49,994 bases of DNA, taken from Candidatus Nomurabacteria bacterium. Its GTDB lineage: Bacteria; Patescibacteriota; Dojkabacteria; SC72; JAHDCA01. Positions 39,827-49,538 of the stretch are shown one piece after another; within the stretch, counting starts at the first letter, position 1; the number at the start of each line of letters is the position of its first letter. The stretch lies in the NCBI GenBank assembly GCA_020632375.1, contig JACKFR010000002.1, forward strand, positions 1 through 49,994, written 5' to 3'. The notes beneath the pieces were generated by a model, which saw only the letters and a program-made list of their open reading frames with translations, ran no database searches and was not told the origin of the DNA. The translations under genes were made by a program, and so were the position numbers.

Positions 39827-40035
39827 TACCCTTCATTGAATCATATTTGGGTAGGGATTCAAACATCACCTATGAATACCGTCTAGACAATATATCAGAG
39901 ATCATTCCCCTCTTTGCTTTCAGTAGAATTCTCTTTATCGTTTATCTCCAAGCTTTTACTTATCGCCCGCTTTTGAGGATTTTTCTCCAACATCAGTATG
40001 CAATATCCATCCGATTAACTCCTCAATGAAGGGTA
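39827..40035. repeat. 13-bp perfect inverted repeat pair
   Basis: TACCCTTCATTGA (39827-39839) and TCAATGAAGGGTA (40023-40035). Confidence 0.85.
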
Positions 40036-41371
40036 CTGAAGCATGTGCATCAGTGTCTTGATCAGTGTAATAATTATCTCTTTGATAAAGGTGGTTGCGA
40101 CTTATCTCTTTTGCAGAGAACAAGAGGGAGAGAGCATGTTTATACTCCTTCTGACTGGATAAGTACCTGGCATAAAGCACGTATGAAGGGATGAAGAAAT
40201 GGTCGTGTCTAATTGACTTCTCTAAATACTTTTTTTGTGTTGAGAACTTCTCCTTTTTCATCTCGCCATTAACGAATGCCAACCGAAAGTAGATGTAAGG
40301 TAGGTACTTCTTGTTTTCGTTTGGATTTGATAACACTGGATGTGACAATATCTCCGAAAGAACAGACAATGCCTTGTCAGGATCTTCTTTAGCGTGTTTG
40401 AAGCTTAAAGCTAGTCCCTCATCGACTAAGTAAGGAAGGTACTCCGAAAATTCGCTTTCGAATTGTGTAACTGTTCTGGTGCTGTGTGAATTAACAAAGC
40501 TTTTATACTTGTTAAGTGTACTCTTCTTTTGGACAAACTTTTTGTAGTAAGGGCTTGAATAAAGGCTTGGAAATCCTTTTATCATTTGGTTTAATGCTAG
40601 ATCAAAATGGTGTCGGTCGTAGAGACAGTAACACGCTGATATAATGTTAAAATAGATATCATTTTTCTTCTCTTTCACTTCATTGCTTAACTCCTCGTTT
40701 TTCTTGTATCGATGCCATATCCAGATGTTGGGATCAAAATAACAGTCAAACCCGAAAAGGTATGCTGTTAAAGAAAATGTACGATCTTCTGGCCCCCATT
40801 TCTCAATATAATCTCCAAAGCCGTGAACCTTTTCAAACACTTCTCTTCTAACGATAAGGCTTGCAGCAATTACAAATGGAACTCGAAAGATCCTGCGTGT
40901 CGTTTTCTTGGGTATTATCCATCTTGGAGAGAAAAAAGTTCTGTCAGAATTTGTATAAATATTAATAGTAGATAAATCCGGTGAATCTGAGTAAAGACTT
41001 TCATCTAGACAGTGAATTCCTAGAATAGCTATTTTAGGCGAATTCTTTAAACGACTTTCAACCTTACTTAGAAGGTTTTCCGGAAATATCATGTGAGCAT
41101 CAACAAACATAAAGACCTCGCCTTTAGCTGATTTCGCCCCTAGGTTTCTCGCTTTTGCCACACCAAGGCCTACTTCATTTCGTAATAACTTTACCTTTGA
41201 GTACTCTTTATTTTGGTTAGTAATGAATTTTGTGGATCCATCTGTAGATCCGTCGTCAACTATAATAATCTCATAATTTACTTTTCTCCCTTTACAGGAA
41301 CTTATTAAGGAATCAACAGTCTTTTTTAGCCAGAAACCCTCATTAAAAGTCACAATTATAACTGATATCAA
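39956..41371 (-). CDS. GT2 glycosyltransferase (ppGalNAc-T-like motifs) with C-terminal TPR-like region
   Basis: IIIVDDGSTDGS, ARNLG, FVDAH (DxH), WGPED and WH. The helical tail YLEKSIRHDHFFIPSYVLYARYL is TPR-like. TTG start. Confidence 0.88.
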   Translation of the reverse strand: MISVIIVTFNEGFWLKKTVDSLISSCKGRKVNYEIIIVDDGSTDGSTKFITNQNKEYSKVKLLRNEVGLGVAKARNLGAKSAKGEVFMFVDAHMIFPENLLSKVESRLKNSPKIAILGIHCLDESLYSDSPDLSTINIYTNSDRTFFSPRWIIPKKTTRRIFRVPFVIAASLIVRREVFEKVHGFGDYIEKWGPEDRTFSLTAYLFGFDCYFDPNIWIWHRYKKNEELSNEVKEKKNDIYFNIISACYCLYDRHHFDLALNQMIKGFPSLYSSPYYKKFVQKKSTLNKYKSFVNSHSTRTVTQFESEFSEYLPYLVDEGLALSFKHAKEDPDKALSVLSEILSHPVLSNPNENKKYLPYIYFRLAFVNGEMKKEKFSTQKKYLEKSIRHDHFFIPSYVLYARYLSSQKEYKHALSLLFSAKEISRNHLYQRDNYYTDQDTDAHASVPFIEELIGWILHTDVGEKSSKAGDK

Positions 41372-41504: not shown

Positions 41505-44500
41505 TTAGCCCTGTATCGTTGGGAGAGGAATGTCATCATCTCGATCTAGCGGTTCTAAAGGTGAACTAACAATAACTGGAGCTTTGATTGTTTCATCGTC
41601 TGTTGTTCCAACGGCTGATTCATCGGTTGTTGGTACTTCGGGTGATGGTTCATCGGGTGGTCTTACTTCAGTTGTTGGCATCTGAAATGAAATTCTTTCT
41701 TCAGGCATGCCTCCTTCTATAAGTAGCGATTTAATTAACCTTCGTGCTTTCTTAGGTAAACCTCCTCCTTGGATTACAATGCTTCCTCTATCGAGTTTGT
41801 ATCTAGCTTTGTAAGACTCTTCACCTCTCCTTACTAATATCCTTGAGTCATCTGCGCTGATTCCGGCTTCTCCTCTTAGTTGTCCTCCTCTAGATGTCCC
41901 TTTAGGATAATAAAAATTGTCTTCTCCTAGGGCTCTTCCTTGTCCTTTTAACAAGTTTGTTCTTAGAAGTGAGGGAAGAGAATATATGGGGGGGAATTTC
42001 CCAGTTATTGGTACATCGGCTGTTGTTCCAACGGCTGTTGTTTCATCGGTTAGTGGTACTTCGGCTTGTGGTTCAACGGCTGGTGGTTCCTCGGTTGATC
42101 CATCGGCTAGTGGTTCATCGGCTAGTGGTTCATCGGCTGGTGATTTACCGGTTGGTGGTACATCGGCTGGTACCTCGGCTGGTGGTACCTCGGCTGGTAC
42201 CTCGGCTGGTGATTCCTCGGCTGGTACCTCGGCTGGTGATTCCTCGGCTGGTGATTCCTCGGCTGGTGATTCTGATACCTCTCGGCTGGTGATTCCTCGG
42301 CTGGTGGTGATTTACCGGTTGGTGGTACCTCGGCTGGTGGTACCTCGGCGGCGGCTGGTGGTACCTCGGCTGGTGGTACCTCGGCTGGTGGTACCTCGGC
42401 TGGTGGTACCTCGGCTGGTGGTACCTCGGCTGGTGGTACCTCGGCTGGTGATTCCTCGGCTGGTGATTCCTCGGCTGGTGATTCCTCGGCTGGTGATTCC
42501 TCGGCTGGTGATTCCTCGGCTGGTGATTCCTCGGCTGGTGATTCCTCGGCTGGTGATTTACCGGCTGGTGGTTCATCGGCTGGTACCTCGGCTGGTGGTA
42601 CCTCGGCTGGTGGTACCTCGGCTGGTGGTGGTACCTCGGCTGGGGTACAACGGCTGGTTGATCCATCGGCTGGTGATTTACCGGTTGGTGGTACCTCTGG
42701 CTGGCTGGTACCTCGGCTGGTACCTCGGCTGGTGGTACCTCGGCTGGTGGTGGTACCTCGGCTGGTGGTACCTCGGCTGGTGATTCCTCGGCTGGTGATT
42801 TACCGGTTGGTGGTACATCGGCTGGTACCTCGGCTGGTGGTACCTCGGCTGGTGGTTCCTCGGCTGGTGATTTACCGGTTGGTGGTACATCGGCTGGTAC
42901 CTCGGCTGGTGGTACTCGGCTGGTGGTACCTCGGCTGGTGGTTCCTCGGCTGGTGATTCCTCGGTGGTGATTACCTCGGCTGGTGGTCCTCCTCGGCTCG
43001 GCTGGTGATTCCTCGGCTGGTGATTCCTCGGCTGGTGGATTCCTCGGCTGGTGATTCCTCGGCTGGTGGTACCTCGGCTGGTGATTGGTACTCGGCTGGT
43101 GGTACATCGGCTGGTACCTCGTACCTCGGCTGGTACCTCGGGTGGTGGTTCCTCGGTACCTGGTACCTCGGCTGGTGGTACCTCGGCTGGTGGTTCAACG
43201 GCTGCTGGTGATCGGCTGGTGGTACTCGGTGGTGGTACTTCGGCTGATGGTACCTCGGTGATGGGCTTGGTGATGGACAACGGTGATGGGCTCGGTTGGT
43301 GGTACTTGGTGATGGGCTCGGTGATGATTTCGGTTGAGGTGGGTGGATGGGCTCGGTGATACCTCGGATGGGCTCAGTGGATCGGCTGGGCTCGGTGATG
43401 GGCTCGGTGATGGGCTCGGTGATGGGCTCGGTGATGGAGCTCGGTGATGGCTCTCGGTGATGGTGATGGTGCTCGGTGATGGGCTCGGTGATGGGCCTGG
43501 TGATGGGCTGGTGATGGGCTCGGTGACGGGCTCGGTGATGGGCTCGGTGATGGGCTCGGTGATGGGCTCGGTGATGGGCTCGGTGATGGGCTCGGTGATG
43601 GGCTCGGTGATGGGCTCGGTGATGGGCTCGGTGATGGGCTCGGTGATGGGCTCGGTGCTGATGGGCTCAGTGATGATGGGCTCGGTGATGGGCTCAGTGG
43701 TGATGGGCTCGGTGACGGGCTCGGTGATGGGCTTGGTGATGGGCTCGGTGATGGGCTCGGTGATGGGCTCAGTGATGGGGCTCGGTGATGGGCCTGGTGA
43801 TGGGCTCGGTGATGGGCTCGGTGATGGGCTCGGTGAGCTCGGTGATGGGCTCGGTGATGGGGGTGATGGCGGCTCGGTGATGGGCTCGGTGATGGGCTGA
43901 TGGGTGATGGGTGTGATGGGCTCGGTGATGGGCTCGGTGATGGGCTCGGTGATGGGCTCGGTGATGGGCTCGGTGATGTCGGTGGTGTCGGTGGTGTCGG
44001 TGGTGTCGGTGGTGTCGGTGGTGTCGGTGGTGTCGGTGGTGTCGGTGGTGTCGGTGGTGTCGGTGGTGTCGGTGGTGTCGGTGGTGTCGGTGGTGTCGGT
44101 GGTGTCGGTGGTGTCGGTGGTGTCGGTGGTGTCGGTGGTGTCGGTGGTGTCGGCGCTGCTGGCGGATTACCTCCTCCTACAGTTCCCATCCCGCCCGGGA
44201 CTGCATTCTGACTAATATCATTTGCAACCAAAGCGCCCATTAATAAGCCTCCAGCCGCTGGACCAACAAGTGCTCCTGCAGTACTTAGGATGTTGTCAGA
44301 AGCGGGGTTCCCAATGTCTGAAGGCCCCGGTAAGCCCCATGCTGAAGCTGCACCGCCAATTACTTGGTTCCCTAGATCGCCTAGATTGATCATAGGGATC
44401 TCATGAGTGTCATATGTGCCCATCTGATGTGCAAGGTCAAACTGCCCACCAGCAGTTCCGGAGGTTCCGTTTACAACTGCTCCCCATTTAGCAAGTGAGT

Positions 44501-47500
44501 TCGGAGCGAGCACGTTTAAGTTAATTTCCTCTCCAATATGTACTGTGTGATAATTATCTGGGCGAGGTGCGTTTTGTTGCATTTCTGCCCAAGCTTCATT
44601 TGCGAATCTTCCCGAGTCTCCATCTGATAATCCAGATTCACGTCCTATTCTTGCAAGATTTCCCCAAATAGTACTATTTTCTGCAACGCCTTCTTCGGCC
44701 ATATCTGCACTCCAGTCCTGGGTTATTTTGAAGACACCCGGCAGAGAACCTCCACCGCCAACTGAAGCTCCTGAATTTAGTAGAGTTTGACCAGTTGTAA
44801 GATCTTGAACCAGAACATTATGACCGTTCTGGCCGAAACTATTTATTACATGATACTGTCCATCAGGCTGGCGTTCGATTCTTATTGCTTCAGTAAAGCT
44901 TGACTGGACTCCTTGTGGTACTGCTCCTCCGCCTGCTGCTGCTACATGTATTGCGGTTGCTTGATCTAAATCTTGTATTGTTCCGACATGCACATGTCCA
45001 GATGTATCTACTTCATAGAACATATGGATATCTTTTCCGTCTACTGCACTTCCTGCTTGTAGATTTTGAGCCGCAGCGTGATTTATTATTGCTCCTGTCA
45101 GATGTAATCCATTAGCTCCTGGAGTTCCAAGCTGTACTACATCGATATCTGAAACATGTTTTCCGAGTTCAAATGCAGCTACTGTATGCATTACTTCGGG
45201 GTTGGCTCCTGCTCCTTGAGCGAGAACAATATGACCGGTGTCGACATGTAAGTACTGATCTACATCAAAACCAGGAGGTGTTGTGTGCGAAGAAAGAGCC
45301 TGAAGTGCGTGCTGGTCTACTGGAACCCATACGTCTGTTTGTCCATCGTGCATGCCTGCTGCATGTGGTCCGCTTAGGTCTAAGCCAACTGCGTAACCAG
45401 CGTGACTATTTCCTGCTGCATCAGTATATGAGTACTCCCTTACGTCAGTAACATCTGCATCTACACCATGTTCAGCTTTCCATTCGGCGTCAACCTTTTT
45501 GTTCATTTCTTCAAGGCTGGCTTTGCTTCGATACTTTTCTATCGCATGGACGTTTTTCCCTGCTTCTGTATAAGCTGCTAGAGCTCTCAATGCAGCAGTC
45601 CCAACCGTAGCGGTTATAATTTTCCCTGCATTGTATGCCGCATGAGCACCGGTTGCAGTGAGAGCTGCGTCTCCCTTTATAACTTTTGCTTCAAGAAGGC
45701 CTCTTTGGAGTTCAAATTTTTCTTCTTTGAGCTGTGCTTTTACGATTTCTCCAAATTGATTAAGGAGGACTCTGTTTCCTCTGTTTCTAGCTGCTTCTCG
45801 TGCTGCAAGGACCTGAGAAACTCTTTGATCTCTTGTCGCTCCTACAGGAACAGTAATTGAAAATAGGCTCTCTATTCGTGCAAGGTCAGCATCAGGAATT
45901 TTTGTTGTGTCTTTAAGTAGCGTTTCAACTTTCCCATCGTAGGCTACGACCTTATCTTTGAGGAGTTTGTATGCATCTAGGTCACCTTCGTATTCGATTT
46001 TTGCCTTTACCATTTCTAACACAACATCTCCGGCTATTCTAAGTCCCCAACTTACACCTGGTAGTGGAACCGCCATTGAAATACCAGATAATGCGCCACC
46101 GAAGATTGCAGCACCCCAAGAGTACTTGTTAAATTTAGATAAGCTCGCATTACTACCTAAAGCAGCTTTAGCTTTTCTTACTCCTTGTACAGCTTTTACA
46201 GCACCATATATACTCATTAGGCCTCCCGCTGCTAACAATAAAGGTGCTCCTCCGACTGCACTAATACCGGCCGCTCCTGCAGTGTAAAGCAAACTGACTC
46301 CAAGTTGTTTTAGATACTTTGACTTGTTCTTCCAGATCTTCTTTAAGGCTCCTTTAAGCCAGCCTTTTTCAGTCGGATCTTCCAGTGCTTCAACTGTTGC
46401 AGCGATTTCTTCTGAACTTTGTATCCCTGGGATCTCACCTGCTGGAACCATTTCCCCTGGGTTGGCGGGGTTTGGTACCTCGACTCTTTCTACTGCATCG
46501 AGGAAGTCTGCGACAGTAGTAGATAGTGCCTCTTTTCTTGTCTCTTCAGGAGATTTTCCAGACCTGACATATTCAAGCAGATATTTGAGGTTTGTCGCAT
46601 ACGGTGTTGAAAGAGCTTCCAAATCACCGTTGATCCGGCCATCGCTTAGGCCTTTGATTGTTTTACCTGCGACTAGATTGGGGTTTGCAACTGTGCCGGC
46701 GGCTTCTTTTAGTCTTTGTTCAAGCTGTGCCTTATCTGCTGGAGTTAAGGTTGTTAGATCATAACCAAGCTTCTGAAGAACAGGGTCAAAGTTTGCTCCT
46801 GTTTTAGCTCGATTAAGAATATCTGCAGCCATTTTGAAGTGGGCGACTGTACGCAGCCCGCTCCACATGCGATTAAGGGCTTCATTTTCTTTACTGCCGT
46901 ATGCTTTAACTTTGAGTTCGCCTGTTGGAATTGTTTCGCCTGCTGCCTGGTCTGCGAGTCGAAGATCATTAAGCATCGATCCTGCAGCGTTTGGTACTGT
47001 GAGTGTAAGGCTTGAAGGGTCTTTATCAAAGAAGAGATCCATAAGGCTCTCAGCAAGGGCTTCAGGTCTGGCTGCTCCACCAGTTGCGATCGGCTCCATG
47101 ATAAAGTGTGAAAAGAGCCCATACATTGTTTGCTTATCTATATCTTTACCTCTTGGTGCTTTCTCTTTCGCAATATCTTTTATCCCTTTTGCCAATATTG
47201 CCGTCTGGACAAGAGTTGCGACTTTGTCAGCAAGGGCTTTGTCTACAGCTGCTACTGAGAGTAGCCTGTCATATACAACTGGGTTCTGAGAGTCACTTTC
47301 TACCAGTGCTCTGAGTGCAGTTATATCTAAGGCTGCAAGCTCCGGATCTGGAGGAGGACCGGCTTTTTTCGCTTCAATTTCGGTCACTGCTTTTTCAAGG
47401 GCTATTTTTTGTATAGTCTCAACAGCGTATTCAGGGTTTGCCGTGTTGTCGAATTCTTGGGCAAGCTTCTTGACTTCAGTATCTGAAGTCGGAAGCTCTT

Positions 47501-48866
47501 TAATTGCTCGACTTGCCTTTAGGCCTGCCATAGTTCTTTCCCGGTGACTTTTAGTACTGTCACCCATGCCACGAGCTCCTTTAAGCCCAATTGCAATTAT
47601 TTTTCGACCATTCTTACCATTATTTGCTCGAATCGCTTTATCCATTTGTTCGAGGAGTTTTTTGGCTTCTGCTCCGGTTGCTCCTCCTGGGGCTGCTGTT
47701 ATGCCTTTGTAGAGGACTTCACCAGAATTGATCCAGTCGTTAATCTGACCAACGCCGTTGTTATCGGTTACATTGAGGCTATAGCCACCTGCGGGGTTTG
47801 TGATCGGCTGGGTTGATGCTGCTTTCGTGTTAATTGTTGTCGGCGTCGGTACTGATGTATCTGTATGATTGAGTGTAAGCGTCGTTACTTTGCCATTCAT
47901 TCTATTAACAAGTACCTTTCGATTAGCCTTTACATTTGCTCTGCTGTTTGCTGAGTATGCCCCTACAACGGTGTCTCTCAAATATGGTGCAAGTGCTGGA
48001 TCGGCAGCTGCCAAGTCAATGGCTTTTTTCTGAATAAGAAGCTGAACGGTTTTCTTAAATGAGTCGTCTCTAAAAAAATCTTTAGGGTTCGCAGAATTGA
48101 GAAGCCCTAGAAACTGTTCTACTGCATGAGGGTCAGTAAGTCTTATAAAGATTGCTGCTGCAATTATTTCTTGGGCATGAGTATCGTTTACTGTCGGCGG
48201 TGTGCCAGTAGACTCAGGAGATAATCCAGCAACTGCTGCTTTAATATCATTAAATACAGCTGCATTTCTTAATGCGACTAGTGTACTAGGATCTACTCCA
48301 AACTTACTTTGGATAAGCTCTTCTATTTTTGAAGAAAAGTTGTTTCCCGCTGAATCTTTGCCATAAATCCCATCGACCACCTCTTTAGCAGTGAATTCGA
48401 TTGCTCCCATTGATCTGAGATCTTCAGCAGGATCAATCTCTAGAAGCGGATCAGGGTTTTCCATAATTTTCTCGATCTCCATATCTGCTGCGGGATGGTT
48501 GGAATCCTTGTCATACAGCTGTCCTTGACGAGCCTTCTTCTCACCTGTATTCTCCCACTTTACCGCTTCCATCATATCTGTAGAAGCAATCTTTAGAGCT
48601 TCTTGTACCGCTCCTGCTAGTTCAGCTTTCTTAGTTTTACCCTTTTCATAAACTAAAGCTGGATCAGTGACTTGAGGCCTCTGAGCTTCTGGGACGTCTT
48701 TAAGATGGCTCGGAACACCAGTATCAGCAAGATAGTGTGGGACAATTGCTGCCGCCTGTAAAAGGTCTGCTGCTTCATGGCTTTTTGCTTGTGCTTCGTT
48801 GGGAAGTTTTTTGGTGTCTATAGTTGCAGGACCGCTAGCTCTGCGAAATGGATTGGGCATTGGCAT
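41505..48866 (-). CDS. Giant (~2,450 aa) repeat-rich surface-type protein, reading frame interrupted by indels within its repeats
   Basis: The ORF track gives 43374-48866 (1830 aa). The frame of the 41505-41954 ORF stays open upstream to 42311 and reads AEESPA/AEVPPA repeats. The intervening ORFs flip between frames of the same repeat units, and there is no intergenic gap. Confidence 0.75.
42078..43256 (-). repeat. Degenerate 15-bp coding repeats (EVPPA/EESPA) with a 72-bp higher-order unit
   Basis: Units GGCTGGTGGTACCTC and GGCTGGTGATTCCTC on the + strand. The GGTGATTTACCGGTTGGTGGTACATCGGC block recurs near 42139, 42794 and 42866. Boundaries are approximate. Confidence 0.92.
43257..43980 (-). 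repeat. 12-bp coding tandem repeat (SPSP)
   Basis: (GGTGATGGGCTC)n on the + strand. On the - strand it reads SPSP, EPIT or AHHR depending on frame. Boundaries are approximate. Confidence 0.93.
43981..44151 (-). repeat. Perfect 9-bp tandem repeat x19 encoding (PTP)n
   Basis: (GGTGGTGTC)19 = 171 bp with no variant copies. Confidence 0.97.
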
Positions 48867-49467
48867 TTTTCTTTGCTTGATAAATTAAGGCAATTGCTTC
48901 TTCTTCGTTGCCTTCATCGAACAGAGCAACGACCTTTTCGAAGTCTTCTTTTGGCAGCTGAGATAGGTGCATTACAATTTCAGATTCTTTTTCAATTGCT
49001 TGGGTAAGTTCTTTTGTTGCGGTTTCTAATTCGGCATCAAATACATCGTCAAAGGTTTTTTGCATGACAGCTTCACAGAAATGATTAAGCAAAACGAATT
49101 GCTGGAGGACATTGGGTTTGTGGAGTAAAAGATTGTTCCACTTAGCTTTTACTTCAGGTGGCATCGCTTTGCTGATTTTGTCTTCAGATCTTAACAGTGC
49201 GACATCTGTAACCTTACCCACTATATCTAAGACTGTTTCTTCGCTGACTCCCCTACTTTTGAGAAACTCAATGAGTTTCGTGAGTCGATCTTGGCCTTTG
49301 GTGAGTTTGAAAAAGTCATCGTCCAGGCCTCGAAGCATTTCTGCTATTTCTTTAGAATCAGCATCGCCTTGAGTTTCAAGGTCACTTGCAATTTGCATCA
49401 CCTGGTCTTTAGTAAGATTGAAGATCTGATTGAGATCTTCAGGGAATTTGAAGTCTGAGTTGGCCAT
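48835..49467 (-). CDS. Hypothetical acidic all-helical protein (possibly DUF5663-like)
   Basis: 210 aa, no TM. Overlaps the giant gene start by 32 nt. The DUF5663 resemblance is only a recalled pattern. Confidence 0.78.
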   Translation of the reverse strand: MANSDFKFPEDLNQIFNLTKDQVMQIASDLETQGDADSKEIAEMLRGLDDDFFKLTKGQDRLTKLIEFLKSRGVSEETVLDIVGKVTDVALLRSEDKISKAMPPEVKAKWNNLLLHKPNVLQQFVLLNHFCEAVMQKTFDDVFDAELETATKELTQAIEKESEIVMHLSQLPKEDFEKVVALFDEGNEEEAIALIYQAKKNANAQSISQS

Positions 49468-49509: not shown

Positions 49510-49538
49510 AATATATATAGTAGAAAGGGGTGTGTCAA
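49510..49538 (-). promoter_or_regulatory. Near-consensus sigma70 promoter of the giant-protein unit
   Basis: TTGACA (49538-49533), 17-bp spacer, TATATT (49515-49510), about 43 nt upstream of the ATG at 49467. Confidence 0.75.

Follow-up and report, generated by a model that had tools for sequence, protein, structure and literature searches.

A giant Dojkabacteria membrane-protein gene, probably single and with its proline-rich repeat core misrepresented in the assembly

The window, by which we mean the whole stretch of DNA analysed, comprises the first 49,994 bases of a 184-kb contig (C7, JACKFR010000002.1) of Candidatus Nomurabacteria bacterium (assembly GCA_020632375.1, class Dojkabacteria). 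Its minus strand, to which coordinates refer unless stated otherwise, carries a giant gene that is deposited in pieces: an open reading frame (ORF) of 1830 amino acids (aa; 43374..48866, ATG at 48866, TGA at 43376-43374), and downstream of it a long repeat and a C-terminal segment, of which the genome's own annotation calls only a 149-aa fragment with a TTG start. Most probably, positions 48866-41505 are a single gene of about 2,400 codons whose tandem array is misrepresented in the assembly.

The one-gene part of this proposal, which the original prediction had already put forward, is well supported: the outer pieces share one frame, the arrays between them are contiguous, and the C-terminal segment lacks a credible start or promoter. 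We infer that the lesions are artefacts and that the protein functions as a stalk with a head. The product would be a membrane protein with a length of at least about 2,400 aa, built in this order from a 1571-aa body, a last membrane helix, a stalk of TPP, SPSP and EVPPA/EESPA units and a small orphan alpha/beta domain at the C-terminus. The 11 to about 25 small insertions and deletions (indels, mostly of 1-2 bases) at 43904-42283 are most likely absent from the organism's DNA; they were probably introduced by sequencing, assembly or consensus polishing of a repetitive, GC-rich array, because reads are not uniquely placeable there. The true array would then contain no frame breaks and might have another number of copies than the deposited one.

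The repeat arrays

Three tandem arrays begin immediately past the last helix and follow each other without intergenic gap; Tandem Repeats Finder (TRF) gives their periods as 9, 12 and 15 bp. The first, ACACCACCG (43977..44153), encodes TPP in about 20 perfect copies, spans 177 bp and shows no lesion. The second, GAGCCCATCACC (43255..43978), reads SPSP in its canonical frame and comprises 62 units, 36 of them of recurrent in-frame types and 16 of a length not divisible by three; it also holds a perfect 12-mer tract of 130 bp. The third, GAGGTACCACCAGCC (42000..43262), has about 85 units. Its basic EVPPA motif is varied to EESPA, EVPA, EVPPPA, DVPPT and GKSPA, the variants being organised in a higher-order unit of 72-75 bp, and 14 of its core units have lengths other than multiples of three. 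According to TRF, indels amount to 11% in the two long arrays and to 0% in the TPP tract.

With a GC content of 61-64%, the region at 42.0-44.2 kb stands out against a genome of 38% GC, and the repeats (42000-44153) are rich in the codons GCC, CCG, GAG and AGC. The 3' edge of the array (42134-42003) is AT-richer; there the units have diverged mainly by substitution and all have kept a length divisible by three. The drift of these edge units to AT-rich codons suggests that the core units were expanded recently. The array of the giant gene is the only large one that TRF detects in the 735-kb genome, which accordingly offers no internal array for comparison.

Frame flips and lesions

Translation of the minus strand in all three frames bears out the flips that had been described from the sequence: the 12-bp array moves between the registers SPSP, AHHR and EPIT, and the 15-bp array between EVPPA, RYHQP and GTTSR. 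The final 260 or so residues of the 1830-aa ORF already contain about six such flips, recognisable as AHHR stretches, before the TGA is reached. We counted the lesions with a frame-tracking Viterbi procedure, which places 11 shifts under a very high shift penalty and about 25 under a moderate one. Under either penalty all of them fall within 42283..43904; the 4.7 kb upstream, the TPP tract and the final 780 bp are free of frame-breaking indels. Individual lesions were placed at 43877, 43782, 43508, 43473, 43454, 43441, about 43344, 43258, 43226, 43213, 43121, 43039, 42993, 42917, 42702, 42658, 42645 and 42283. At least four frame switches are required simply to avoid stops.

The 1830-aa ORF and the open C-terminal frame are in the same frame (coordinate modulo 3 equal to 2), and the indels between them must therefore sum to zero modulo 3. 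Read straight through, this frame meets five in-frame stops between 48866 and 41507: TGA at 43376, TAA at 42680, TGA at 42575, TAA at 42560 and TAA at 42314. Behind the last of these, the frame stays open for 268 codons (41505..42311), as had been claimed; it comprises the last in-frame repeats, the C-terminal domain and a TAA at 41505-41507.

The discrete lesions named beforehand were found where they had been placed. The plus strand reads GGTACTCGG exactly at 42911, 43087 and 43221, as compared with 30 canonical copies of GGTACCTCGG; on the coding strand the lesion appears as CCGAGTACC. These three are the exception, since the lesions are otherwise almost all one-off and varied in form: GG shortened to G, CCC lengthened to CCCC, a lone G or A lost, an extra GA, or complex patches. 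The extra CT predicted near 42280 is located at about 42283-42284, where the coding strand has the additional GA, and no frame-breaking lesion follows it.

Of 137 core units, 86 are recurrent in-frame variants (EVPA, EVPPPA, GKSPA, SPGP and others), this reference set having been chosen as recurrent and of a length divisible by three and thus being in frame by construction. Thirty units of the 12-bp and 15-bp arrays together depart from a multiple of three. Among the non-recurrent units, 22 differ by indels only, 19 by indels and substitutions and seven by substitutions only, which amounts to 83 indel bases versus 43 substituted ones; insertions are about as frequent as deletions. The diverged edge displays the opposite and natural-looking pattern, with 14 substituted and five indel bases. 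Natural decay of bacterial genes is dominated by substitutions.

The confinement of the indels to the repeats, another claim of the original prediction, thus holds. The lesions are dominated by indels and restricted to the array core, they end exactly where the sequence turns unique, and the flanks are open over 1571 codons on the N-terminal and 268 codons on the C-terminal side.

The C-terminal segment

The non-repeat part of the C-terminal segment (41508..42020) encodes 171 aa. AlphaFold, run on the single sequence, predicts an alpha/beta fold for residues 15 to 113 or so, with a predicted local distance difference test (pLDDT) of 80-86 in the core. Degenerate in-frame repeat units occur on both sides of this domain, and EVxP-like units precede the TAA. 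Estimated from base composition, the chance that 171 non-repeat codons at 38% GC stay free of stops is about 1e-5, which implies that the domain is coding or was so until very recently.

That it might be a gene of its own was considered and rejected. There is no gap between array and domain, and on the minus strand between 41.2 and 44.3 kb we found no site resembling a promoter or a terminator. Possible in-frame starts are limited to TTG 41954, ATG 41708 and ATG 41681, and each of them cuts into the predicted domain; no ATG, GTG or TTG is found ahead of TTG 41954, which itself lies within the predicted first helix region. A credible promoter or start of its own, which would have marked the 41.5-42.3 kb segment as independent, did not emerge. 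Known gene starts nearby lack a Shine-Dalgarno sequence.

At 41709-41719 a perfect GAAGGAGG stands 1 nt ahead of the in-frame ATG 41708; it encodes IEGGM, and its spacing is too short for a ribosome-binding site.

The domain is an orphan by every search applied. Six-frame searches of 60 related genomes yielded no relative, nor did searches of genome contigs and metagenome contigs. A word search of 5.8 billion proteins with the domain alone returned only the window's own 149-aa ORF, and the same search with the full-length read-through query produced no relative of the domain either. It has no match in Pfam or NCBIfam, and a Foldseek comparison of its model with the PDB gave nothing below E=0.07.

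The body and its relatives

The non-repeat body (44154..48866) translates into 1571 aa without any frame problem. It begins with an Ala/Lys-rich region of about 850 aa and further contains hydrophobic segments as well as a conserved module, DQDW...GVAxNSTxWG. A first hydrophobic, presumably membrane-inserted segment or hairpin covers residues 859-893 (46188..46292), a second one residues 917-938 (46053..46118), and the last one, residues 1526-1551 (44214..44291), stands directly ahead of the repeats. The protein likely is a membrane-anchored giant, in which the last helix would be followed by a Pro-rich spacer of about 700 aa, as assembled, that presents the orphan alpha/beta domain.

Relatives of the body are scarce. 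Among 221 genomes of the class, homologues were detected only in three (G003, G005 and G091), and four of the 221 in all carry the giant-protein family; a profile search of 1.84 billion representative proteins returned only six matches. The G003 homologue, on a SPAdes NODE contig (CAZINM010000007.1), shares 32% identity over residues 21-1484 (E=1.2e-117). Right past the equivalent helix it enters an in-frame PVPTPA repeat, and there its contig ends (bases 1-270); its remainder is missing from the G003 assembly. G005 contains an intact homologue of 1961 aa with the same neighbours (an upstream gene of similar size, a family 2 glycosyltransferase (GT2) and Xer), and this protein has no repeat.

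The window gene belongs to one family of giant membrane proteins with G003, G005 and P0003-P0007. As read from their sequences, its architecture starts with a helical N-terminal region and continues with paired hydrophobic segments, the conserved module, the last helix and a low-complexity tail. The more distant members P0003, P0005, P0006 and P0007 are single polypeptides of this build. In these four and in G003 the last hydrophobic segment sits in the same place and is followed by the low-complexity tail; in P0007 a Pro-rich linker leads to a further stretch of about 330 aa within one ORF. These relatives (G003, G005 and the four proteins) are consistent with a one-gene architecture. Stalks of this family are generally hostile to assembly, and no homologue of the body, among the 221 class genomes and the 1.84 billion representatives, offers an independently assembled intact stalk.

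How the sequence was assembled

The draft genome consists of 14 contigs totalling 735 kb and is 80.5% complete. ORFs of at least 100 aa cover 91% of it and 93% of contig C7, and a screen for split genes revealed no further candidate within the window; the statement that the other genes of the window look intact is therefore confirmed. Over the whole genome the screen listed a handful of candidates, every one in accessory genes.

Some features of the assembly tell something about its making. One contig (C9, right end) stops about 80 nt into the 16S gene, after a 27F-like region; this is a break in short-read style or possibly reflects an insertion in the 16S gene of this member of the Candidate Phyla Radiation (CPR). 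Two others (right ends of C12 and C14) stop on entering a Pro-rich repeat of the PDPT type. The end of C12 reads ...CEAEPAPDP; the reverse strand of C14 gives PDPTPEPQVVPGDINQDGEVSLADYA together with a DINQDGxxSxxD motif that resembles dockerin. Probably both belong to one more secreted protein with repeats, which the assembler left in two halves. Several contigs measure 4-12 kb, and the homopolymer length spectrum is normal and accurate up to 8 nt. No overlaps of at least 20 nt were found between contig ends, so the k-mer size is not revealed.

Three further loci outside the window drew attention in this context. In C7:128009-128731, infC lacks a stop at the usual end of IF3 and continues for about 58 Lys-rich codons out of frame over rpmI. 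Homopolymer errors in essential genes, which would have pointed to long reads, were looked for, but the A8 run at infC/rpmI is no simple error of this kind, rpmI being read correctly across it. In C1:106199-106849, a 1-nt frameshift at an A6 run divides an IS1595-type transposase. In C7:59856-60985, another 1-nt frameshift interrupts a class I S-adenosylmethionine (SAM) methyltransferase in its ...RVL(K)PGG motif. The latter two could be real pseudogenes.

Several of these observations weigh against an artefactual array. Contigs that end in the 16S gene and at Pro-rich repeats, small contigs and accurate homopolymers are the behaviour of a short-read graph, and if the assembly was a pure de Bruijn one, every k-mer, lesions included, was present in the reads. 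Outside the TPP tract, no k-mer of the array as deposited recurs at k of at least 121, whereas in an idealised in-frame version some do at k=127-151. Because its k-mers are unique to this extent, a short-read graph could have built the contig, and the irregularities could be exactly what allowed the assembly and hence be real. The net-zero frame, moreover, arises by accident with a chance of one in three, and no relative of the C-terminal domain displays the intact architecture directly.

The irregularities also fit, however, with long-read filling or with a mapping-based consensus step. According to a study of polishing (PMC8812927), errors in repeats can survive this step or arise in it. The original prediction had favoured unpolished long-read or assembly errors. 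Errors of some kind are indeed favoured by the lesion spectrum and the clean flanks; the long-read mechanism is doubtful in view of the short-read-like contig breaks, the accurate homopolymers and the uniqueness of k-mers at k of at least 121.

Alternative explanations

If the lesions are real, the gene would be truncated or pseudogenised in its stalk. Its product would then be a protein of 1830 aa that ends in a short SP/His-rich tail, and what follows, the rest of the array and the C-terminal domain, would be a recent, decaying remnant. The short-read-like breaks speak for this possibility, as they imply that the contig k-mers derive from reads, and so do the few other isolated frameshifts in accessory genes, the IS1595 transposase at its A6 run and the SAM methyltransferase, which may be true pseudogenes. 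The explanation demands, however, at least four and probably 11-25 independent indels of a length other than a multiple of three within 1.6 kb. In the adjacent non-repeat domain of 513 bp there is none, although three to eight would be expected at a uniform rate (P about 0.03 to 0.0004). The spectrum, dominated by indels with insertions roughly equal to deletions, is unlike natural decay; nor are the lesions spread over the former coding region, and substitutions are fewer than indels, which is not how a neutral pseudogene decays. Finally, streamlined CPR genomes rarely keep a dead tandem repeat of 2 kb. We regard a real truncation as unlikely.

The array might also be hypervariable among the sampled cells, both in the number of its units and in their order. 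The contig would then be a consensus, chimeric or collapsed, of several in-frame alleles, and no single cell would carry it. A draft in 14 contigs and of 80.5% completeness makes this conceivable. The perfect 12-mer tract of 130 bp would be as long as expected if a collapsed loop were traversed minimally at k=127, and the halt of two other contigs at Pro-rich repeats suggests branching of the graph. A k-mer graph that mixes alleles joins whole units, though, and should not yield indels of 1-2 nt. Some consensus step would still be required, which folds the idea into that of an array misrepresented by assembly or polishing. On its own, it appears quite doubtful.

Even less probable is a genuine frame mosaic. 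Compensated indels might be tolerated in a stop-poor Pro-rich linker, so that stalks switch between the SPSP/AHHR/EPIT and EVPPA/RYHQP/GTTSR registers and occasionally become truncated. A related view, to which we attach the least weight of all, takes the flips as functional: alternative linker frames, such as the His-rich AHHR, would be tolerated or exploited, or ribosomal frameshifting would occur, or the C-terminal part would be a separate gene. It is true that the 12-bp unit is devoid of stops in all three frames and the 15-bp units in two of three, and that the overall frame is restored at the end. Read-through of the ORF frame is blocked, however, by five stops (TAA in three cases), and the frame would have to shift at least four times, at sites that share no slippery motif. 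The C-terminal frame, for its part, has neither a start ahead of the domain nor a promoter-like site, and the annotation calls nothing but the 149-aa TTG fragment.

Slipped-strand variation, which the original prediction had kept as its alternative, found no support and was rejected as phase variation: the units of 9, 12 and 15 nt are all multiples of three, so slippage or unequal exchange shifts whole codons and cannot cause frame flips. Stop-codon recoding was likewise dismissed, three of the five stops being TAA.

Comparison with known systems

The closest analogy to a misrepresented array is provided by the residual or introduced indel errors in repeats of polished assemblies, as treated in the context of Polypolish (PMC8812927). 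There, too, small indels occur only where reads cannot be placed uniquely, the rest is clean and genes appear frameshifted. The difference is that the breaks in the present assembly look like short-read ones; the route to the errors might have been long-read filling, polishing by mapping or a consensus update.

Other likenesses come from protein families. The PE_PGRS and PPE-MPTR genes of Mycobacterium tuberculosis, which encode repetitive surface proteins, are notorious for being mis-sequenced: their coding repeats are rich in GC and of low complexity, and drafts often show apparent frameshifts in them. The giant gene resembles them in these features of its repeats; it differs in organism, family and repeat chemistry, Pro/Ser/Thr/Glu here and Gly/Ala/Asn there. 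Proline-rich spacers are known from the Glu-Pro/Lys-Pro rod of TonB and from the Pro-rich wall-spanning regions of Gram-positive surface proteins. Like these, the giant protein continues after a membrane helix with a long X-Pro repeat, which would form an extended spacer and present a terminal domain. It differs in that it shows no sequence homology to them and lacks a sortase/LPXTG signal and a TonB C-terminal domain; its stalk, moreover, is far longer (about 700 aa in the assembled form) and organised in three tiers.

Slipped-strand contingency genes share with the giant gene the tandem repeats in a gene for a surface protein and an apparent on/off truncation. In contingency genes, however, a change in unit or tract alters the frame (1, 2, 4, 5 or 7 nt), whereas the giant gene has units of 9, 12 and 15 nt and scattered one-off indels.

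Neighbouring genes

The start of the giant gene is overlapped by a gene for a helical partner of 210 aa (48835..49467), which has no match in Pfam or NCBIfam. G003 and G005 likewise have a gene immediately ahead of the giant one; with 213 and 225 aa, respectively, it resembles this partner in size and position. Upstream of the partner gene, a promoter-like site TTGACA-17-TATATT (49510..49538) matches the consensus in 11 of 12 positions and, judged by its sequence, likely starts an operon that includes the giant gene. On the other side, 134 nt beyond the stop of the giant gene, follows the GT2 glycosyltransferase (39956..41371; Glycos_transf_2, 1.3e-28), which might possibly modify the Ser/Thr/Pro-rich stalk. 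An exact-protein look-up gave no match outside their own genome for either the 1830-aa ORF or the GT2 gene.

Implications

Overall, the finding is an ordinary one and amounts to a warning about the annotation of an orphan gene that is interesting in other respects. The deposited 1830-aa protein with its odd His-rich tail and the 149-aa orphan are probably pieces of one stalked membrane protein. The split should accordingly be treated as an annotation problem; the joined architecture is to be preferred, and the repeat sequence and its copy number are to be distrusted.

If the lesions turned out to be real, the locus would be of a different kind: a surface-protein gene truncated only recently, or one with frame-mosaic linkers, either of which would be a rarity in a streamlined CPR genome. 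A true frame mosaic would mean heritable variation in the chemistry of a surface tether, by His-rich blocks, and in its length, i.e., diversification or phase variation without unit slippage. Giant envelope proteins of Dojkabacteria are few, and they might serve the contact with host or partner cells.

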